This document shows positions 1,045 to 59,950 of a DNA stretch of 64,000 nucleotides, piece after piece (the first letter of the stretch is position 1; every line of letters begins with the position of its first letter). A program made the translations under genes and the position numbers. A model generated the notes under the pieces. The model was given only the letters and a program-made list of their open reading frames with translations. It was not told the origin of the DNA and did no database searches. Location: NCBI RefSeq assembly GCF_054482595.1, contig NZ_CM137008.1, one strand, 5' to 3'.

Positions 1045-1938
<894 letters not shown>

Positions 1939-1974
1939 TTACCTCATCAATCGCTTGTAGTTATATGTTGTGTT

Positions 1975-2008
1975 GTGCACATCTATCCGTTTAGACGTCC
2001 AGATGTAA
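1975..2008 (-). promoter_or_regulatory. metF operator with tandem MetJ met-box-like octamers
   Basis: Minus-strand reading gives acatctGGACGTCTaaacggatagatgtg immediately upstream of metF, matching the AGACGTCT met-box consensus. Confidence 0.6.
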
Positions 2009-2283
2009 AGATGAAGGAAAAGCCGAAGGGCGTCAACCGAAAAATGACCAATGATGGTGAGGAAAAATCAGGGAAGATGAAAAAACTTCAGGATGGTAAG
2101 AAAAAGAAAATCCGGTATGCAAAGCAAACCGGACTGCAAATATTAACTAACCATGTACTTATTGCTTCTTGCCGGATTCGTCGTAAACGCTTCATCCGGC
2201 CTAATCCTATGATAATTCAATATATTTCATTAGAAACCATAGACCCGAAAACATGAGTACCGGACATTATTAAATTTCTGAAA

Positions 2284-4716
2284 TTACAACAACTGTGCCA
2301 GCCGGTTGATATCCGACTGAATCGCCCCGGCGGTGACGTCGCGCCCCGCGCCAGGCCCACGGATCACCAGCGGGTTATCGCGATACCAGCGGCTTTCGAT
2401 GGCAAAGACGTTGTCGCACGGCAGCAGTGATGCCAGCGGATGGTCTTCACGCACCGCCTCCACGCCCACACGCGCTTTGCCGTTGGCATCGAAACGCGCC
2501 ACGTAGCGCAGCACCAGCCCCATTTCGCGGGCCGCTTCCAGCCGTTGCACCATCTGCTCGTTAAGTTCATCGCCATTTTCAAAGAAATGGTCGATGCTGC
2601 CGCCTTCGCAATGAGCAGGCACCAGCGATTCCACACGTACCTGGTCCGGTTCAATGTTGTAACCCGCTTCACGCGCCAGAATCACCAGCTTGCGCATTAC
2701 GTCTTTGCCGGAGAGGTCGTCACGCGGATCAGGCTCGGTTAAGCCCTGCTGCCACGCCTGATCCACCAGCTCGGTAAACGGCACGCTACCGTCGAATTGC
2801 AGGAACAGCCAGGAGAGCGTGCCGGAGAAGATCCCACTGATCGACAAAATAGTATCGCCGCTGTCGATCAGATCGCGCACGGTGTGGTTGATCGGCAAGC
2901 CCGCACCGACGGTGGCGTTGTACAGCCAGTGACGCCCGGTTTTTTCGAAGGCGTCGTGGATCTGGCGATATTTATTGCTGTCGCTTGCTCCCGCCAGTTT
3001 GTTGGCACTGATGACGTGGAAACCGTGGCTGGCGAAATCAAGATACTGGTCAGCCAGCTGCTGGCTGGCGGTAACGTCCAGCACCACTAAATCATCATAC
3101 GGATGGGCGCGCATCCACAGGAAAAGCGACTCTTCATCCTGCTCGACCGCTTCATCGTTGAAGAAGGCTAACGCGCGGCTGGCGTCCAGCCCGTCATAAC
3201 TCAACAGACTGCGGCGGCTGTCCACCACGCCTGCCAGCACAAATTCAAAGCCGGTACGCGCCGAAAGCGAGCTCTGCTCGCGGGCGAACAGTTCCAGCCA
3301 GCGGGAACCGATATTGCCTTTGCCGAACAATACCAGGCCGATGCGTTTTTCTGCGCGGAAGACGGACTGATGCAGGCCCTGAATCAGGCTTTCGGTCGGG
3401 CCGGTGCGCAGTACTGCCACCAGGCTGATGCCGTCATCGGACTGCCAGGTAAACTCGACCGGCTGGCCTTTCAGTTGCTGCCAGAAGCGGTGGCAATGCA
3501 GCGGGTTACGGGTGACACCCGCCCCGACCATCGCCACCAGCGCCAGCCCCTGACGCAGGCGCAGTTCGCCAGGTAATCCCGCTTCGTCGAGGATTTTCAG
3601 CGCACTGTCGGCCACTTCTGAGGTGTAGCAAAATTGCAGCAACTGGCGATCGTTATGCACGCCAACCGCCAGTGGACGCACCTGGGCACGTTTCAGGATT
3701 TGGTCGATCTCTTTATGCGCCAGTTTGAAATCCTGACTGGCGGGCACCTGAAACTCAATCAAACAGACATCATCGTGGCTGGTGACAATACGCGCACCAG
3801 TACCGGAGGCCAGCACGCGTTCAATGCGCGTGGAACCTTGATCCGGCGTGTAGCTACAGCGCAGCTGCAGGTCGATTTCGCTGCCAGAAACTGGCTGTAA
3901 AGTACGGGCGTGAAGAACGGGAGCCGCCAGACGCGCCAGTTCGCTGGCCTCATCCAGACGCAGCAACGGCAGCAGGCAGGCATCTTTCACTTTACGCGGG
4001 TCGGCACTGTATACCCCGGCGACGTCGCTCCAGATGGTTACGCGAGAAACACCCGCCAGCGCACCGATTTGTGTCGCGGAATAGTCGGAACCGTTACGCC
4101 CCAGCAGCACCGTTTCACCGGCGTTGTTACGGCTGATAAACCCGGTCACCACCAGACGTTTACCCGGATGTTGTACCAGTAGCTGTTGCAGCAACGGGTA
4201 AGAAAGCCCTTCATCAACCTGCGGTTGCGCAGCGCGTTCAGCGCGTAAAAACTCGCGGGCATCAAGCCAGGCCGCTGGCAGCCCTTGTTGATTAAGTACC
4301 GCAGACATCAGTCGCGCCGACCACACTTCACCGTGGCCCACCACTTCCGCATACACTGCGTCGTTAATACCGCTGTCGAGCAGCGCCGCCAGGCGCTCAA
4401 GATCGCTGACAAAAGCGCTAATGAGGCTATCGGCTTCTTCGGCGGGTAGCAGGCCGCTAATCAGATCGCACTGATAGCGACGCAGCGTTTGTTGAACCTG
4501 ATGCGCAGAGAGACGATCGGTCTGGCTTAGTTTCAACCAGTTAATCAACTGGTTAGTGGTGCTACCGGCGGCGGAAACCACCATCATATCGTCAGGCTGA
4601 GAGTACTCCGCCATAATGCCCGCGACACGCAAATAACACTTCACATCAGCCAGACTACTGCCACCAAATTTATGCAGCTGACGACCTTTCGCCCCTGCCT
4701 GCGCAATCACACTCAT
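2284..4716 (-). CDS. metL: Bifunctional aspartokinase II / homoserine dehydrogenase II
   Basis: 810-aa ORF MSVIAQAGAKGRQLHKFGGSSLADVKCYLRVAGIMAEYSQPDDMMVVSAAGSTTNQL... recognised as MetL. Confidence 0.95.
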   Translation of the reverse strand: MSVIAQAGAKGRQLHKFGGSSLADVKCYLRVAGIMAEYSQPDDMMVVSAAGSTTNQLINWLKLSQTDRLSAHQVQQTLRRYQCDLISGLLPAEEADSLISAFVSDLERLAALLDSGINDAVYAEVVGHGEVWSARLMSAVLNQQGLPAAWLDAREFLRAERAAQPQVDEGLSYPLLQQLLVQHPGKRLVVTGFISRNNAGETVLLGRNGSDYSATQIGALAGVSRVTIWSDVAGVYSADPRKVKDACLLPLLRLDEASELARLAAPVLHARTLQPVSGSEIDLQLRCSYTPDQGSTRIERVLASGTGARIVTSHDDVCLIEFQVPASQDFKLAHKEIDQILKRAQVRPLAVGVHNDRQLLQFCYTSEVADSALKILDEAGLPGELRLRQGLALVAMVGAGVTRNPLHCHRFWQQLKGQPVEFTWQSDDGISLVAVLRTGPTESLIQGLHQSVFRAEKRIGLVLFGKGNIGSRWLELFAREQSSLSARTGFEFVLAGVVDSRRSLLSYDGLDASRALAFFNDEAVEQDEESLFLWMRAHPYDDLVVLDVTASQQLADQYLDFASHGFHVISANKLAGASDSNKYRQIHDAFEKTGRHWLYNATVGAGLPINHTVRDLIDSGDTILSISGIFSGTLSWLFLQFDGSVPFTELVDQAWQQGLTEPDPRDDLSGKDVMRKLVILAREAGYNIEPDQVRVESLVPAHCEGGSIDHFFENGDELNEQMVQRLEAAREMGLVLRYVARFDANGKARVGVEAVREDHPLASLLPCDNVFAIESRWYRDNPLVIRGPGAGRDVTAGAIQSDINRLAQLL

Positions 4717-4718
4717 TT

Positions 4719-5879
4719 TTACCCCTTGTTTGCAGCCCGGAAGCCATTTTCCAGGTCGGCAATTAAATCTTCGCCATCTTCAATACCGGTGGAGATACGC
4801 AGCAGCGTCTCGGAGATCCCGGCGGCAGCACGCGCTTCTGGCGCCATGCCTGCATGTGTCATGGTTGCGGCGTGAGAGATTAAACTTTCCACTCCCCCTA
4901 ACGATTCCGCCAGCGTAAACAACGACAGCCCGCCCAGGAAACGACGCAGCGTCTGCTCATCGCCATCCAGTTCAAAACTCAACATTGCGCCAAAGCCTTT
5001 TTGCTGACGCGCGGCAATTTCATGCCCCTGATTTTCCGGCAGCGACGGGTGATACAGTTTTTTCACCAACGGCTGGGTTTGCAGATATTTCACAATCGCC
5101 TGCGCGTTGCGCTGCGCCAGCTCCATACGCGGCACCAGCGTTCGCAACCCGCGTAGCAGCAGATAGCTGTCAAACGCGCCGCCCGTCACGCCAATATTGT
5201 TTGCCCACCAGGCAAGTTCAGTGACAACGTCCGGGTCTTTAGCAATCACCACGCCAGCCACCACGTCAGAGTGACCGTTCAGATATTTCGTACATGAATG
5301 CAACACCAGATCGGCACCCAATGCCAGCGGATTTTGTAATGCCGGGCTTAAGAAGGTGTTATCCACCACGCTCACCGCCCCGACTTCCCTTGCCAGATGG
5401 CAGATTTTCGCAATATCCACGACGCGTAACAATGGATTACTTGGGCTTTCTACCAGTACCAGTTTGGGGTTTTCTGCCAGCGCTGCCCGTAATGCCTGTT
5501 CATCGCCTTGATCAACAAACAACACGCGATAGCAACCGCGTTTCGCCAGGCTGTCGAACAGGCGATAGCTACCGCCGTAGCAGTCGTGCGGCGCAACCAG
5601 CAGATCGCCAGGTTTCAAAAAGACGGTCGTTACCAGGTGAATCGCGGACATGCCGGTATTAGTAAGTACTGCACCAGCACCGCCTTCCAGTTCTGCCAGC
5701 GCACGCTGAACCACATCGCGCGTTGGGTTGCCGCGACGCGAGTAATCATGCGCGCGCGGTTCATTAAATCCGGTAAAGTTATAGGTGCTGGAAAGATGGA
5801 TGGGAGGGACAACGCAACCATACTGTTCGTCGTCATTTAACCCGCTACGCACTGCGATGGTGGCCTGTTTACGCGTCAT
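4719..5879 (-). CDS. metB: Cystathionine gamma-synthase (PLP-dependent)
   Basis: ORF track gives 445 aa, but recognised MetB begins at internal MTRKQATIAVRSGLNDDEQYG...; ATG at 5879 gives 386 aa; 3 bp downstream of metL start (metBL operon). Confidence 0.9.
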   Translation of the reverse strand: MTRKQATIAVRSGLNDDEQYGCVVPPIHLSSTYNFTGFNEPRAHDYSRRGNPTRDVVQRALAELEGGAGAVLTNTGMSAIHLVTTVFLKPGDLLVAPHDCYGGSYRLFDSLAKRGCYRVLFVDQGDEQALRAALAENPKLVLVESPSNPLLRVVDIAKICHLAREVGAVSVVDNTFLSPALQNPLALGADLVLHSCTKYLNGHSDVVAGVVIAKDPDVVTELAWWANNIGVTGGAFDSYLLLRGLRTLVPRMELAQRNAQAIVKYLQTQPLVKKLYHPSLPENQGHEIAARQQKGFGAMLSFELDGDEQTLRRFLGGLSLFTLAESLGGVESLISHAATMTHAGMAPEARAAAGISETLLRISTGIEDGEDLIADLENGFRAANKG

Positions 5880-5940
5880 GTGATGAAGTTCCCTGGGCTT
5901 GGTCGGTGAAATGTCAGGCACCAGAGTAAACATTGTGTTA

Positions 5941-5976
5941 ATGGACGTCAATACATCTGGACATCTAAACTTCTTT
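5941..5976. promoter_or_regulatory. metB/metJ divergent control region with met boxes
   Basis: ggacgtcaatacatctggacatctaaac: tandem 8-bp units resembling AGACGTCT in the metB-metJ intergenic region. Confidence 0.6.
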
Positions 5977-6155
5977 GCGTATAGATTGAGCAAATCCCAA
6001 ATAGCCGTTAAAATTATATGCATTATCACGCCGACAGATGCATTACACGATGTCACGGTAACGCCTGTACGGTAAACTATGCGGGTTTACGGTCAGTACC
6101 CACATAAATTGTGTGGTCTGGTCTCAATTTATTGACGAAGAGGATTAAGTATCTC

Positions 6156-11235: not shown

Positions 11236-11487
<252 letters not shown>

Positions 11488-11491
11488 CTAA

Positions 11492-13849
<2,358 letters not shown>

Positions 13850-31160: not shown

Positions 31161-31329
31161 CGCCCGACTCTCTTATGTTGTGTTGTGATGAGCAAAGCGT
31201 GCCAGAAGGTTAACCAAACATTAAAGAATAAAAAAAGATTGGCTATAACTTGCGGGTATATGTTGGGGGATTAAAAAGGCGGAAGAAATCCGCCTCATAT
31301 TGCTGACAAAGTGCGCTTTGTCCATGCCA

Positions 31330-31425
31330 TATGCGGCGCGAACGCCTTATCCGGCCTACAAAAGTTTGCAAATTCAATAAATTGCAGAATTCATGTAGGC
31401 CTGATAAGCGAAGCGCATCAGGCAT
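31330..31425. repeat. REP/BIME element between sbp and pfkA
   Basis: tgcggcgcgaacgccttatccggcctaca ... tgtaggcctgataagcgaagcgcatcaggca: inverted REP pair. Confidence 0.85.
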
Positions 31426-36392: not shown

Positions 36393-36490
36393 ACTCCGCA
36401 TTTGTAGGCAGGATAAGGCGTTTACGCCGCATCCGGCATTTGAGCAGGATGCCTGATGCGACGCTGATAGCGTCTTATCAGGCCTACACT
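36393..36490. repeat. REP/BIME element downstream of cpxA
   Basis: tgtaggcaggataaggcgtttacgccgcatccggca ... gcctgatgcgacgctgatagcgtcttatcaggcctac. Confidence 0.85.
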
Positions 36491-42258: not shown

Positions 42259-45271
<3,013 letters not shown>

Positions 45272-45276
45272 ACACT

Positions 45277-45600
45277 GCCGGATGCGGCGCGAGCGCCTTA
45301 TCCGGCCTACAGGTCGGCAACAGTTGTAGGCCTGATAAGACGCGACAGCGTCGCATCAGGCATTGATTGCCGGATACGGCACGAGTGCCTTATCCGGCCT
45401 ACAGGTCGGCAATAGTTGTAGGCCTGATAAGACGCGACAGCGTCGCATCAGGCATTGATTGCCGGATGCGGCACGAGCGCCTTATCCGGCCTACAGGTCG
45501 GCAATAGTTGTAGGCCTGATAAGACGCGACAGCGTCGCATCAGGCATTGATTGCCGGATGCGGCACGAGCGCCTTATCCGGCCTACGGGTCGTGCATCCG
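45277..45600. repeat. Tandem BIME array: about 3.5 copies of a 92-bp unit built from REP palindromes
   Basis: gccggatgcggc recurs at 45277, 45369 (as gccggatacggc), 45461 and 45553, period 92 bp; each unit has an inverted REP pair (gccttatccggcctaca / tgtaggcctgataag...gcatcaggc). Confidence 0.9.
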
Positions 45601-45629
45601 ACAACACCGAATTTACAGGAACACAGAAC

Positions 45630-46454
45630 ATGCAAAATATTACCCAGTCCTGGTTTGTCCAGGGAATGATCAAAGCCACCACCGACGCCTGGCTAAAAGG
45701 CTGGGACGAGCGCAACGGCGGCAACCTGACGCTGCGCCTGGATGACGCCGATATCGCGCTTTATCACGACAACTTCCACCCACAACCGCGCTATATTCCG
45801 CTCAGCCAGCCCATGCCTTTACTGGCAAATACGCCGTTTATTGTCACCGGCTCCGGCAAATTCTTCCGTAACGTCCAGCTTGATCCTGCAGCTAACTTAG
45901 GCGTCGTAAAAGTCGACAGCGACGGCGCGGGCTACCATATTCTCTGGGGGTTAACCAACGAAGCCGTTCCAACTTCTGAACTTCCGGCTCACTTTCTCTC
46001 CCACTGCGAGCGTATTAAAGCCACCAACGGTAAAGATCGGGTGATCATGCACTGCCATGCCACCAACCTGATCGCCCTCACCTATGTACTGGAAAACGAC
46101 ACCGCGGTCTTCACTCGCCAACTGTGGGAAGGCAGCACCGAGTGTCTGGTGGTATTCCCGGATGGCGTTGGCATTCTGCCGTGGATGGTGCCCGGCACGG
46201 ACGAAATCGGCCAGGCAACTGCCCACGAGATGCAAAAACATTCGCTGGTGTTGTGGCCCTTCCACGGTGTGTTCGGTTCCGGACCGACGCTGGATGAAAC
46301 ATTCGGTTTAATCGACACCGCAGAAAAATCAGCGGAAGTGTTAGTGAAGGTGTATTCGATGGGCGGCATGAAACAGACCATCAGCCGTGAAGAGTTGATA
46401 GCGCTCGGCAAGCGCTTCGGCGTTACACCACTAGCCAGTGCGCTGGCGCTGTAA
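45630..46454 (+). CDS. rhaD: Rhamnulose-1-phosphate aldolase
   Basis: Recognised RhaD begins [47 protein letters not shown]... (274 aa from ATG at 45630); ORF-track extension 45459-45629 runs through the REP array. Confidence 0.95.
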
Positions 46455-46463
46455 GGAGCAAAC

Positions 46464-46778
46464 ATGATCCGCAAAGCCTTTGTCATGCAGGTTAACCCCG
46501 ACGCTCACGAAGAGTATCAGCGTCGGCATAACCCCATCTGGCCGGAACTGGAAGCAGTGTTGAAATCTCACGGTGCGCATAACTACGCCATTTACCTCGA
46601 CAAAGCGCGTAATCTGCTGTTTGCCACGGTAGAGATTGAATCTGAAGAGCGCTGGAATGCGGTTGCCAGTACTGATGTTTGCCAACGTTGGTGGAAATAT
46701 ATGACCGACGTCATGCCCGCGAACCCGGATAACAGCCCGGTGAGTAGCGAACTGCAAGAAGTGTTTTACCTGCCGTAA
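46464..46778 (+). CDS. rhaM: L-rhamnose mutarotase
   Basis: 104-aa [49 protein letters not shown]... recognised as RhaM (YiiL). Confidence 0.9.
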
Positions 46779-47090
46779 TTGCCTAATGTGCCGGAGACGC
46801 CTCCGGCACAATATTTTTAATTTCGATTTGAAAAATAAACATATTACACCTTCAGTTAATATATCCCGGTAACTTATATTTCCCCGATGCATTGTGAGTA
46901 AATCACAAAAATAATGAATAACTCATTAATGATTCATGTGGTTTATTTAAATAACCATTATGTGCATTACTCCGCAAATCTGACCTTTCACTCTGTCTCA
47001 AATTGTCATTGTTTACCGACATATCGCCTCTCATCACTTAATCGCTCCACCATTACAATTGATTAAAATATATTTCATGGAGTCCGATTA

Positions 47091-51814: not shown

Positions 51815-51895
51815 CGGATGCACCGCTAACACGGCTTAACGACGTTTAGGTCGGATAAGGCGTTTACGCCGCATCCGACCTTGTATTTCTCAGCA
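51815..51895. repeat. REP element downstream of frvR
   Basis: gtcggatgcaccgctaacacggcttaacgacgtttaggtcggataaggcgtttacgccgcatccgacc. Confidence 0.8.
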
Positions 51896-54143: not shown

Positions 54144-57100
54144 ATGCAGGTCAGCAGAAGGCAGTTCTTTAAGATCTGCGCTGGCGGTATGGCAGGCACC
54201 ACGGCAGCGGCACTGGGTTTTGCACCCAGCGTAGCACTCGCGGAAACCCGGCAGTATAAACTGCTGCGCACCCGCGAAACCCGTAATACCTGCACCTATT
54301 GTTCCGTAGGCTGTGGGCTGTTGATGTACAGCCTCGGTGACGGAGCAAAAAACGCCAAAGCATCTATCTTCCATATCGAAGGCGATCCGGATCACCCGGT
54401 CAACCGCGGTGCACTTTGTCCGAAAGGCGCTGGCCTGGTGGATTTCATCCACTCCGAAAGCCGTCTGAAGTTCCCGGAATACCGTGCCCCTGGTTCTGAT
54501 AAATGGCAGCAAATCAGTTGGGAAGAGGCGTTTGATCGCATCGCCAAACTGATGAAAGAAGACCGCGATGCTAACTACATTGCGCAAAACGCCGAAGGCG
54601 TGACCGTTAACCGCTGGCTCTCCACCGGGATGCTGTGTGCTTCCGCGTCGAGTAACGAAACCGGCTATTTAACGCAAAAATTCTCCCGCGCGCTGGGTAT
54701 GCTCGCGGTCGACAACCAGGCGCGTGTCTGACACGGACCAACGGTAGCAAGTCTTGCTCCAACATTTGGTCGCGGTGCGATGACCAACCACTGGGTCGAC
54801 ATCAAGAACGCCAACCTCGTCGTGGTGATGGGCGGTAACGCCGCTGAAGCTCACCCGGTCGGATTCCGCTGGGCGATGGAAGCCAAAATTCACAACGGCG
54901 CGAAGCTGATTGTGCTCGATCCTCGCTTTACGCGTACGGCGGCAGTGGCTGACTACTATGCCCCTATTCGTTCCGGTACTGACATTGCTTTCCTGTCAGG
55001 CGTATTGCTGTACCTGCTGAACAATGAAAAATTCAACCGCGAATACACCGAAGCCTATACCAACGCCAGCCTGATCGTGCGTGAGGATTACGGCTTTGAA
55101 GATGGCCTGTTCACCGGCTACGACGCAGAAAAACGCAAGTACGATAAATCCTCCTGGACTTACGAACTGGACGAAAACGGCTTCGCCAAACGCGATACCA
55201 CGCTGCAACATCCGCGCTGCGTGTGGAACTTGCTGAAACAGCACGTTTCCCGCTACACGCCAGATGTGGTTGAAAACATCTGTGGTACGCCAAAAGACGC
55301 GTTCCTGAAAGTCTGCGAATACATCGCAGAAACCAGTGCTCACGATAAAACTGCCTCGTTCCTGTATGCCCTCGGCTGGACGCAACACTCCGTTGGTGCG
55401 CAAAACATTCGTACGATGGCGATGATCCAGCTGCTGCTCGGCAACATGGGGATGGCAGGCGGCGGCGTTAACGCCCTGCGCGGTCACTCCAATATTCAGG
55501 GGCTGACGGACCTGGGCCTTCTGTCGCAGAGCCTGCCAGGTTACATGACGCTGCCAAGCGAGAAGCAGACCGATCTGCAAACCTACCTTACCGCCAACAC
55601 GCCAAAACCGCTGCTGGAAGGCCAGGTAAACTACTGGGGCAACTACCCGAAATTCTTCGTCTCCATGATGAAGGCTTTCTTTGGTGATAAAGCAACGGCG
55701 GAAAATAGCTGGGGCTTTGACTGGTTGCCGAAGTGGGATAAAGGCTACGACGTCCTGCAATACTTCGAGATGATGAAAGAGGGCAAGGTCAATGGCTATA
55801 TCTGCCAGGGCTTTAACCCTGTTGCCTCATTCCCGAACAAAAACAAAGTGATCGGTTGTCTGTCGAAACTGAAGTTCCTCGTCACCATCGACCCGCTGAA
55901 CACTGAAACCTCTAACTTCTGGCAGAACCACGGTGAGCTGAACGAAGTTGACTCGTCGAAGATCCAGACCGAAGTGTTCCGTCTGCCATCGACCTGCTTC
56001 GCGGAAGAGAACGGTTCTATCGTAAACTCAGGTCGCTGGTTGCAGTGGCACTGGAAAGGTGCGGACGCCCCAGGGATTGCGCTGACTGATGGCGAGATCC
56101 TCTCCGGTATCTTCCTGCGCTTGCGCAAGATGTATGCCGAACAGGGTGGCGCGAACCCGGACCAGGTGCTGAACATGACCTGGAACTACGCCATTCCGCA
56201 TGAGCCGAAGTCGGAAGAAGTAGCGATGGAGAGCAACGGTAAGGCGCTGGCCGATATTACCGATCCGGCAACCGGTGCGGTTATCGTCAAGAAAGGCCAA
56301 CAACTTAGCTCGTTTGCCCAACTTCGCGATGACGGTACAACTTCCTGTGGTTGCTGGATTTTCGCCGGTAGCTGGACGCCGGAAGGCAACCAGATGGCAC
56401 GCCGTGATAACGCCGATCCGTCTGGCCTCGGTAACACGCTGGGCTGGGCATGGGCATGGCCGCTTAACCGCCGCATTCTGTATAACCGCGCCTCCGCAGA
56501 TCCGCAGGGTAACCCGTGGGATCCGAAGCGTCAGTTGCTGAAATGGGACGGCACTAAGTGGACCGGCTGGGATATTCCGGACTACAGCGCAGCGCCTCCG
56601 GGTAGCGGCGTCGGGCCGTTTATCATGCAGCAGGAAGGCATGGGGCGTCTGTTTGCCCTCGATAAGATGGCGGAAGGTCCGTTCCCGGAACACTACGAGC
56701 CGTTTGAAACGCCGCTGGGAACTAACCCGCTGCATCCAAACGTTATCTCGAACCCGGCTGCACGTATCTTTAAAGACGACGCCGAAGCATTGGGTAAAGC
56801 CGATAAGTTCCCGTATGTCGGAACCACCTATCGTCTGACCGAGCACTTCCACTACTGGACCAAACACGCGCTGTTGAACGCGATTTTGCAACCAGAGCAG
56901 TTTGTGGAAATCGGGGAGTCGCTGGCGAATAAACTTGGCATTGCCCAGGGCGATACCGTGAAAGTCTCCTCCAACCGTGGCTATATCAAAGCCAAAGCGG
57001 TGGTGACCAAACGTATTCGTACGCTGAAAGCGAACGGCAAAGATATCGATACCATCGGTATTCCGATTCACTGGGGTTATGAAGGCGTAGCTAAAAAAGG

Positions 57101-59667: not shown

Positions 59668-59859
59668 TCTCTGACGTTTTCCGGGTGGCGCTGGTCGCCC
59701 GGATTACAGCTCATAGGGTGTGACGACACCATCTCTCGTATTCCGCGTTACCCATTCAAGATCATGCCGCAATTGTCTGTTTGCCTCGTTCTTCCCTCCA
59801 ACACATCGATAAGGTTATGGGTATGTCACTGATGACAAGCGTATGATTGCCTGATGCGC

Positions 59860-59950
59860 TGCGCTTATCAGCCCTACCAATAAACTTCAATATATTGAAT
59901 TTGCATGACTTTGTAGGCCGGATAAGGCGTTCACGCCGCATCCGGCATGA
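59860..59950. repeat. REP/BIME element downstream of fdhE
   Basis: gcctgatgcgctgcgcttatcagccctac ... tgtaggccggataaggcgttcacgccgcatccggca. Confidence 0.85.

Follow-up and report, generated by a model that had tools for sequence, protein, structure and literature searches.

REP and BIME elements have been described since 1984, and the REP pair between malE and malF is a classical stabiliser of mRNA 3′ ends. Newbury et al. reportedly found in 1987 that the intercistronic REP hairpins of malE-malF shield the upstream mRNA from 3′ exonucleases. The locus studied here, the rhaA-rhaD spacer in a 64,000-nucleotide stretch of DNA (the window), also contains intercistronic REP hairpins; malE-malF has two REPs, whereas the rha locus has a seven-REP tandem array.

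Clusters of REP palindromes are the element class associated with the REP-associated tyrosine transposase (RAYT, TnpA_REP), which cleaves and recombines BIMEs in vitro (PMC3333891). BIME-2 is defined by z2 and y REPs in tandem copies with short linkers, and BIME-1 by z1 and y REPs in single copy with a long L linker that contains an IHF site; IHF binding is a property of this long linker (PMC3333891).

REP325 (yjdM-yjdN, the source of naRNA1-6) is the best-studied stabiliser and partial Rho-dependent attenuator. In the yjdMN operon it stabilised the upstream gene and cut expression of the downstream gene about 8-10 fold; at the native locus, neighbour expression was shifted roughly 3-fold (upstream) to 10-fold (downstream), and attenuation was partly Rho-dependent, with Rho dependence seen only for the full array (bioRxiv 10.64898/2026.03.23.713779). 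Across the genome, where two tandem genes flank a REP, expression is biased toward the upstream one. We took the REP325 sequence from K-12 for comparison. Like the rha array, REP325 is a tandem Y/Z2 array within an operon, between co-directional genes, and starts near the upstream stop codon. It differs in orientation to transcription (sense strand Z2> Y<, versus Y> Z2< in the rha array), in linkers and period (17 + 11 nt and 100, versus 15 + 5 nt and 92) and in REP number (12 versus 7).

The window array is orthologous to EcoCyc REP299 of K-12. The description of REP299a-i reads 'located within an operon (rhaBAD)', places it no more than 15 nt from the upstream gene and lists it as a REPIN with a predicted RAYT association, and a mobilome preprint reported exonuclease-protected coverage at REP299 under stress (bioRxiv 10.1101/2024.07.17.603846). 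The rhaA-rhaD spacer of K-12 MG1655 was 450 bp long and had nine REPs, in agreement with the EcoCyc name. The two arrays share locus and frame ('acac', Y REP, modules, and an identical 43-nt leader to rhaD), the 92-bp module and its linkers. K-12 has four modules (9 REPs, 450 bp) against three (7 REPs, 358 bp) in the window, and the internal Y loop and stem are GGCACAAGTGCC in K-12 versus GGCACGAGCGCC or GGCACGAGTGCC in the window. In a gyrase Topo-Seq table, W3110 'rhaA>-rhaD>' is listed as a BIME-2 of 401 bp, with 4 cleavage sites under ciprofloxacin, 2 under rifampicin + ciprofloxacin, 1 under microcin B17 and 0 under oxolinic acid; the K-12 orthologue was cleaved by DNA gyrase in vivo even with transcription blocked (PMC6379681 supplement). 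The rhaA-rhaD array is therefore already known, from the K-12 annotation REP299 and as a listed gyrase-cleaved BIME-2. By analogy with K-12, the window array is a likely gyrase target on DNA.

The BIME-2 between araA and araD (araBAD) also lies in an operon for sugar catabolism, where it separates the isomerase gene from the one that follows, and is gyrase-cleaved (3 sites under ciprofloxacin and 3 under rifampicin + ciprofloxacin; PMC6379681 supplement); it has been used as a TnpA_REP substrate (PMC3333891). It occupies another locus and is shorter (247 bp in K-12), and is likened to the rha array by description.

Structure of the rhaA-rhaD array

The rhaA-rhaD array is a textbook BIME-2, ordinary and already catalogued in E. 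coli. It was first noticed as about 3.5 copies of a 92-bp repeat at 45277-45600 between rhaA and rhaD, which was right to within a few bases. Tandem Repeats Finder (TRF) reported period 92 at 45276-45592, with 3.4 copies, 96% matches, no indels and a score of 599, and a repeat search placed three 92-nt copies, in register and 96-100% identical, at 45276, 45368 and 45460. A lack of 92-bp periodicity was looked for by both methods, and the periodicity was present. The identity of the flanking genes was likewise confirmed. The features are as follows.

44012-45271, + strand: rhaA (L-rhamnose isomerase), NCBIfam TIGR01748/NF002203 equivalog, E about 1e-249
45269-45271, + strand: rhaA stop codon TAA
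45276-45310, + strand: REP 1, Y type (TGCCGGATGCGGCGCGAGCGCCTTATCCGGCCTAC); consensus scans; RNA hairpin -21.3 kcal/mol
45311-45325, + strand: 15-nt tail-to-tail linker AGGTCGGCAACAGTT (short, S-type position)
45326-45362, - strand: REP 2, Z2 type, inverted (+ strand GTAGGCCTGATAAGACGCGACAGCGTCGCATCAGGCA); consensus scans; RNA hairpin -21.9 kcal/mol
45363-45367, + strand: 5-nt head-to-head linker TTGAT, also at 45455-45459 and 45547-45551
45368-45402, + strand: REP 3, Y type, variant GATACGGCACGAGTGCC; consensus scans, repeat search, RNA folding
45418-45454, - strand: REP 4, Z2 type, inverted; consensus scans
45460-45494, + strand: REP 5, Y type; consensus scans, RNA folding
45510-45546, - strand: REP 6, Z2 type, inverted; consensus scans
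45552-45586, + strand: REP 7, Y type, terminal; consensus scans
45587-45629, + strand: unique leader, 43 nt, with the rhaD ribosome-binding site (…ACAGGAACACAGAAC ATG)
45630-46454, + strand: rhaD (rhamnulose-1-phosphate aldolase), NCBIfam NF002963 equivalog, E 9e-143
46464-46778, + strand: rhaM (L-rhamnose mutarotase), NCBIfam equivalog

The spacer was 358 nt long, and the array (45276-45586) took up 311 of these; 4 nt (ACAC) separated the rhaA stop codon from the array start. Consensus scans revealed seven REPs which, read along the + strand, alternate strictly (Y> Z2< Y> Z2< Y> Z2< Y>). The Y, Z1 and Z2 consensus sequences used follow the Gilson/Bachellier nomenclature; the four Y and three Z2 units each showed 1-5 differences from them (substitutions and edge insertions). 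Each 92-bp unit combined a Y REP with an inverted Z2 REP, as expected from the preliminary description, which had recognised an inverted REP pair in every unit and called the array a BIME. The 15-nt linker recurred at 45403-45417 and 45495-45509 with one C/T difference, and its general form was AGGTCGGCAA(C/T)AGTT. The layout was thus one resident Y REP followed by three 92-bp modules, each composed of the 15-nt linker, an inverted Z2, TTGAT and a Y. REP 7 is the sole REP remaining in strains with zero inserted modules.

The sequence features that define BIME-2 were present: Y and Z2 REPs by consensus scans of the spacer, with no Z1 REP found there; alternating REP/iREP in tail-to-tail and head-to-head arrangement; short linkers (15 nt and 5 nt); and a strain-variable tandem number (0-6 modules) with like copies at one locus (96-100% identity). 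All Y units ended in CCTAC and all inverted Z2 units began with GTAGG, and the predicted REP hairpins contained an internal mismatch or bulge (RNA folding). The GTAG/CTAC foot and imperfect stem needed for TnpA_REP recognition were therefore present at the sequence level. Since REP stems are imperfect, an inverted-repeat search gave no match with a 9-nt seed; a 6-nt seed found the palindromes and detected inverted-repeat pairs among the array units. A strict-mismatch REP scan missed some Y variants; a gapped-loop pattern recovered most.

RNA folding of the spacer had been suggested at the outset. The sense strand of 45260-45640 folded as RNA with -200.1 kcal/mol (z = -10.9) and the antisense strand with -187.5 kcal/mol (z = -9.3), so that either strand is predicted to fold very strongly. 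Single-REP hairpins gave -19 to -22 kcal/mol on either strand, and a Y-linker-Z2 pair can alternatively fold as one long hairpin of -55 kcal/mol.

All five genes of the locus (rhaA, rhaD, rhaB, rhaS and rhaM) were NCBIfam equivalogs far over the cut-off, with E <1e-140 for rhaA and rhaD. Upstream lay rhaB, co-oriented with rhaA, and rhaS, on the other strand; rhaM lay downstream. Consensus scanning of 44800-46900 found no intrinsic terminator (GC-rich hairpin plus U tract) within 45272-45629; the sole terminator-like site was at 46787-46810, 3′ of rhaM. The same scan found no separate promoter for rhaD; the one promoter-like match near the spacer (45612-45641) overlapped the rhaD start codon. 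Moralejo et al., in the original rhaBAD sequence paper of 1993, reportedly found the region upstream of rhaD to be without promoter activity. The array is co-transcribed in rhaBAD(M) unless transcription ends inside it. It does not look like a classic Rho loading site, because it is not C-rich and G-poor: in a Rho-loading composition test the array was highly structured with C/G = 0.90, and C exceeded G only from 45572-45649 (C/G 1.71), on into early rhaD. This C-rich, G-poor stretch starts at the 43-nt rhaD leader, which was kept in all alleles of the main spacer-length series described below.

The array also gave rise to artefact open reading frames: 45459-46454 (+), a 331-aa ORF that starts at a TTG and prolongs the rhaD frame upstream across the REPs, and 45078-45356 (-) and 45491-45724 (-) over the REP array and its flanks. 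Annotators should not over-read such spurious ORFs, or the wrong-strand Rfam 'naRNA4' match that the array produces.

Module number and the junction in other bacteria

Copy number in the array had been proposed to vary among strains. We searched 5,426 complete genomes with flank-only queries (300 + 300 nt and 420 + 420 nt) and drew two 'spread' samples of 59 full rows each; spacer length was the span of the joined flank matches. In the two 59-genome samples, spacer lengths were 82 + 92n with n = 0 to 6 (1 to 13 REPs), which bore out the proposal, and a parallel series of 92 + 92n occurred in lineages with a 53-nt leader. The 82 + 92n rule was confirmed by fetched sequence for n = 0, 1, 2, 3, 4, 5 and 6, and every fetched allele had ACAC, then Y, then n modules, then the leader. 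The classes were distributed as follows (combined samples); the frequencies are rough, as the database is biased and a few records were shared by both samples.

n = 0: 26 of 118 rows; single-REP alleles, about 22%
n = 1: 22 of 118 rows
n = 2: 18 of 118 rows
n = 3: 5 of 118 rows; the class of the window
n = 4: 28 of 118 rows; includes K-12
n = 5: 2 of 118 rows
n = 6: 1 of 118 rows
241-bp spacer: 16 of 118 rows, about 14%

The seven-REP (n = 3) allele of the window is a minority form. The HKUOPY1 array had 6.4 units and 13 REPs. Strains with equal flank identity differed in spacer length (450, 266 and 82 bp), O157:H7 had a spacer of 174 bp versus 450 or 542 bp in O55:H7 strains, and PK8241 reached a 358-bp spacer through K-12-like internal units, unlike those of the window. 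Like flanks with unlike n, the O157/O55 contrast and the PK8241 units point to frequent and recurrent change in module number. Such change probably arises when the 92-bp direct repeats recombine or slip against one another, or through strand exchange mediated by RAYT. The window was 100% identical to E. coli XH990 over every segment tested near the spacer (up to 1,101 nt). Array length ranges from 1 to 13 REPs in E. coli and is a handy hypervariable marker.

The 241-bp class (E. coli E24377A, extract 401-641) had one Y REP and an unrelated element of ~176 nt with arms CCCTCACCCC…CCCTCTCCC / GGGAGAGGGTTAGGGTGAGGGG. This CCCTCACCCC…GGGTGAGGGG element could be aligned with elements that Enterobacter, Lelliottia and Pseudocitrobacter carry at the same junction.

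In two strains the spacer was interrupted by IS1397 (annotated IS3-like), with insertions of about 1.4 kb.

Z1323HEC0300, extract 1789-3500: IS1397 in the loop of a Z2 REP
IAI39, extract 1984-3500: IS1397 in the loop of the single Y REP, in opposite orientation to Z1323HEC0300

IS1397 inserts specifically into REPs (PMC1525189). Its presence in REP loops here is thus an independent confirmation that the units behave as bona fide REPs. Both extracts also had a carbohydrate porin gene 3′ of rhaM (4690-6084 in each), which in IAI39 lay before frvA.

Outgroups were retrieved with a degenerate DNA pattern for rhaD codons 8-17, which gave at least 120 species-level genomes. Among the matches listed, rhaA and rhaD were adjacent in 113 of 120; E. 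coli, E. albertii and E. fergusonii were absent from this list. The junction, again among the matches listed, was 4 nt in Pectobacterium and Brenneria, 6-25 nt in Serratia, Dickeya, Hafnia, Pasteurellaceae and Gilliamella, and 35-236 nt with genus-specific palindromes in most Enterobacteriaceae. Salmonella arizonae had two REPs at the junction. Superficieibacter electus had an independent 8.2 x 49-bp array (TRF score 619) in a 466-nt rhaA-rhaD spacer, composed of another REP type with all copies in one orientation. The junction is a recurrent landing and expansion site. Because the junction is 4-25 nt in other families, the array is dispensable and the operon works without it.

Probable effects on rhaBAD(M) expression

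The array is very probably best explained as a BIME-2 in rhaBAD(M), orthologous to REP299, whose effects would be modulatory side-effects of a semi-selfish repeat that the operon does not need in order to function. The role as transcript stabiliser or attenuator put forward in the preliminary description is plausible by analogy. Seven hairpins in the rhaBAD mRNA, as well as the long Y-Z2 hairpins, would block 3′-to-5′ exonucleases and protect the rhaB-rhaA message. The 358-nt untranslated, structured gap may let fewer transcripts continue into rhaD-rhaM, to an extent that depends on copy number and partly on Rho. The first hairpin, whose first paired base (45277) lies 5 nt past the rhaA stop codon, may hinder termination of RhaA translation; a '15-nt rule' on REPs near stop codons is cited in bioRxiv 10.1101/2024.07.17.603846. 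For these three RNA-level steps the models are REP325 and other REPs. The REP325 analogy is imperfect, because its orientation to transcription is opposite and its linkers differ. The 2026 REP325 preprint with its supplements and the RepRanger paper contained nothing useful on REP299, rhaA or rhaD.

Published RNA-seq of AIEC strain LF82 gave RPKM values of 554 for rhaD, 376 for rhaA and 452 for rhaB in minimal medium, and 303, 39 and 65, respectively, with bile salts; the response to growth condition was 1.8-fold for rhaD versus 7-10-fold for rhaA and rhaB (PMC6379400). The operon halves on either side of the spacer are clearly uncoupled in LF82. The direction of uncoupling fits differential decay better than termination, and rhaD above rhaA and rhaB, in this one published table, is the reverse of what simple attenuation would produce.

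In the main alternative view, the array is nothing more than a selfish or neutral REPIN/BIME expansion that leaves rha expression essentially unaffected, at a junction that merely tolerates insertions. This view concerns host benefit and does not conflict with BIME-2 identity. It agrees with module numbers from 0 to 6 and single-REP alleles in about 22% of the sample, with equally similar flanks that carry 450-, 266- and 82-bp spacers, and with the tolerance of about 1.4 kb IS1397 insertions. The junctions of only 4-25 nt in Pectobacterium, Serratia, Hafnia and Pasteurellaceae, and the other palindromic elements at the same junction in Enterobacteriaceae, including the Superficieibacter array, point the same way. 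However, a 311-nt mRNA block that folds with about -200 kcal/mol is unlikely to be kinetically silent, the intra-operon REP325 alters its neighbours to the extent given above (roughly 3-fold upstream to 10-fold downstream), the K-12 orthologue is cleaved by gyrase, and rhaD is uncoupled from rhaBA in LF82. We regard complete neutrality as possible but on the unlikely side. Any host benefit of the array must be small or conditional, because single-REP alleles are common and the junction measures 4-25 nt in other families.

It is rather doubtful that module number (0-6) acts as a fast-mutating heritable dial, similar to a contingency locus, that sets the ratio of RhaB/RhaA to RhaD/RhaM. If it did, the ratio would set exposure to rhamnulose-1-phosphate, and lineages would have been selected repeatedly to different settings; the array, opposite to REP325 in orientation, would then also tell whether orientation matters for BIME effects on mRNA. 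The BIME-2 alleles form a natural series in a well-understood inducible operon and would provide a clean system in which to study how mRNA decay, Rho attenuation and gyrase targeting respond to the number and orientation of REPs.

naRNA4 matches, IHF sites and other elements of the window

Rfam naRNA4 (RF02564) matched the array three times with 72.8-73.3 bits, above the gathering score of 59.5.

45329-45399, - strand: naRNA4 match
45421-45491, - strand: naRNA4 match
45513-45583, - strand: naRNA4 match

Each match spanned one head-to-head Z2/Y pair. These matches, and the likewise Y/Z2 composition of REP325, from which naRNA4 derives, could suggest a cluster of genes for nucleoid-associated ncRNAs that bind HU and condense the chromosome. 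We consider this very improbable and rejected it: the matches are antisense to rhaBAD, the sense strand scored about 51-53 bits (50.8-53), below the gathering threshold, and the sole minus-strand promoter-like match (45661-45634) is misplaced. This match lies downstream of the array on the minus strand and therefore cannot drive minus-strand transcription of the array. REP325 is, moreover, opposite in orientation to operon transcription, with other linkers and a 100-bp period, and REP325/naRNA4 was found to be without measurable nucleoid compaction in a 2026 preprint that shares an author with the original naRNA4 paper (bioRxiv 10.64898/2026.03.23.713779). The Rfam model in effect models a single BIME-2 unit, and the naRNA4 match is a match to one such unit, with no evidence of an sRNA gene.

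The preliminary description had also suggested gyrase and IHF sites. Its gyrase part is supported by the K-12 Topo-Seq data (PMC6379681 supplement), whereas the IHF part failed, the array being a BIME-2 with neither Z1 nor a match to the IHF consensus WATCAANNNNTTR. A BIME-1 or RIP-type element with IHF binding as its main role would share with the array an extragenic Y REP and inverted partner REP, and the core ATCAA does occur on the minus strand of each TTGAT linker. However, Z1, single copy and a long L linker with an IHF site, which characterise BIME-1, RIP and RIB, are all lacking in the array, whose linkers are 15 and 5 nt. No match to WATCAANNNNTTR was found in 45272-45629, and four were found elsewhere in the window. 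BIME-1 elements, furthermore, occur as single copies and not as tandem arrays (PMC3333891). The BIME-1 reading is effectively refuted.

A degenerate or orphan CRISPR array, although suggested by the regular periodicity and palindromic repeats, is ruled out by the sequence, in line with the earlier remark that unique spacers are lacking: the 'spacers' are two constant, near-identical linkers (15 + 5 nt), the repeats are of two types in alternating orientation, the array units recur elsewhere in E. coli (median 9 places in each genome), and the array sits within a sugar operon.

Other REP elements were present in the window. A second BIME-2-type pair (Y< then Z2>) was located at 36400-36487; within it, 36407-36484 (+) matched Rfam naRNA4 with 78.6 bits, above any match in the rha array. 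A Z2/Y pair was located at 24216-24309, and two degenerate single Y units were near 2170-2204 and 51844-51880. Two Y/Z1 pairs with linkers of about 30 nt (31322-31424 and 59845-59947) were BIME-1-like, and neither contained an exact IHF consensus. The linker of the pair at 31322-31424 matched Rfam ES036/CssrF (31361-31402, 48.2 bits). Three further Rfam matches exceeded the gathering score: an L31 ribosomal-protein leader at 11455-11507 (-), a ClpQY (hslVU) promoter element at 16119-16176 (+) and a SECIS_3 selenocysteine insertion element at 54726-54784 (+).
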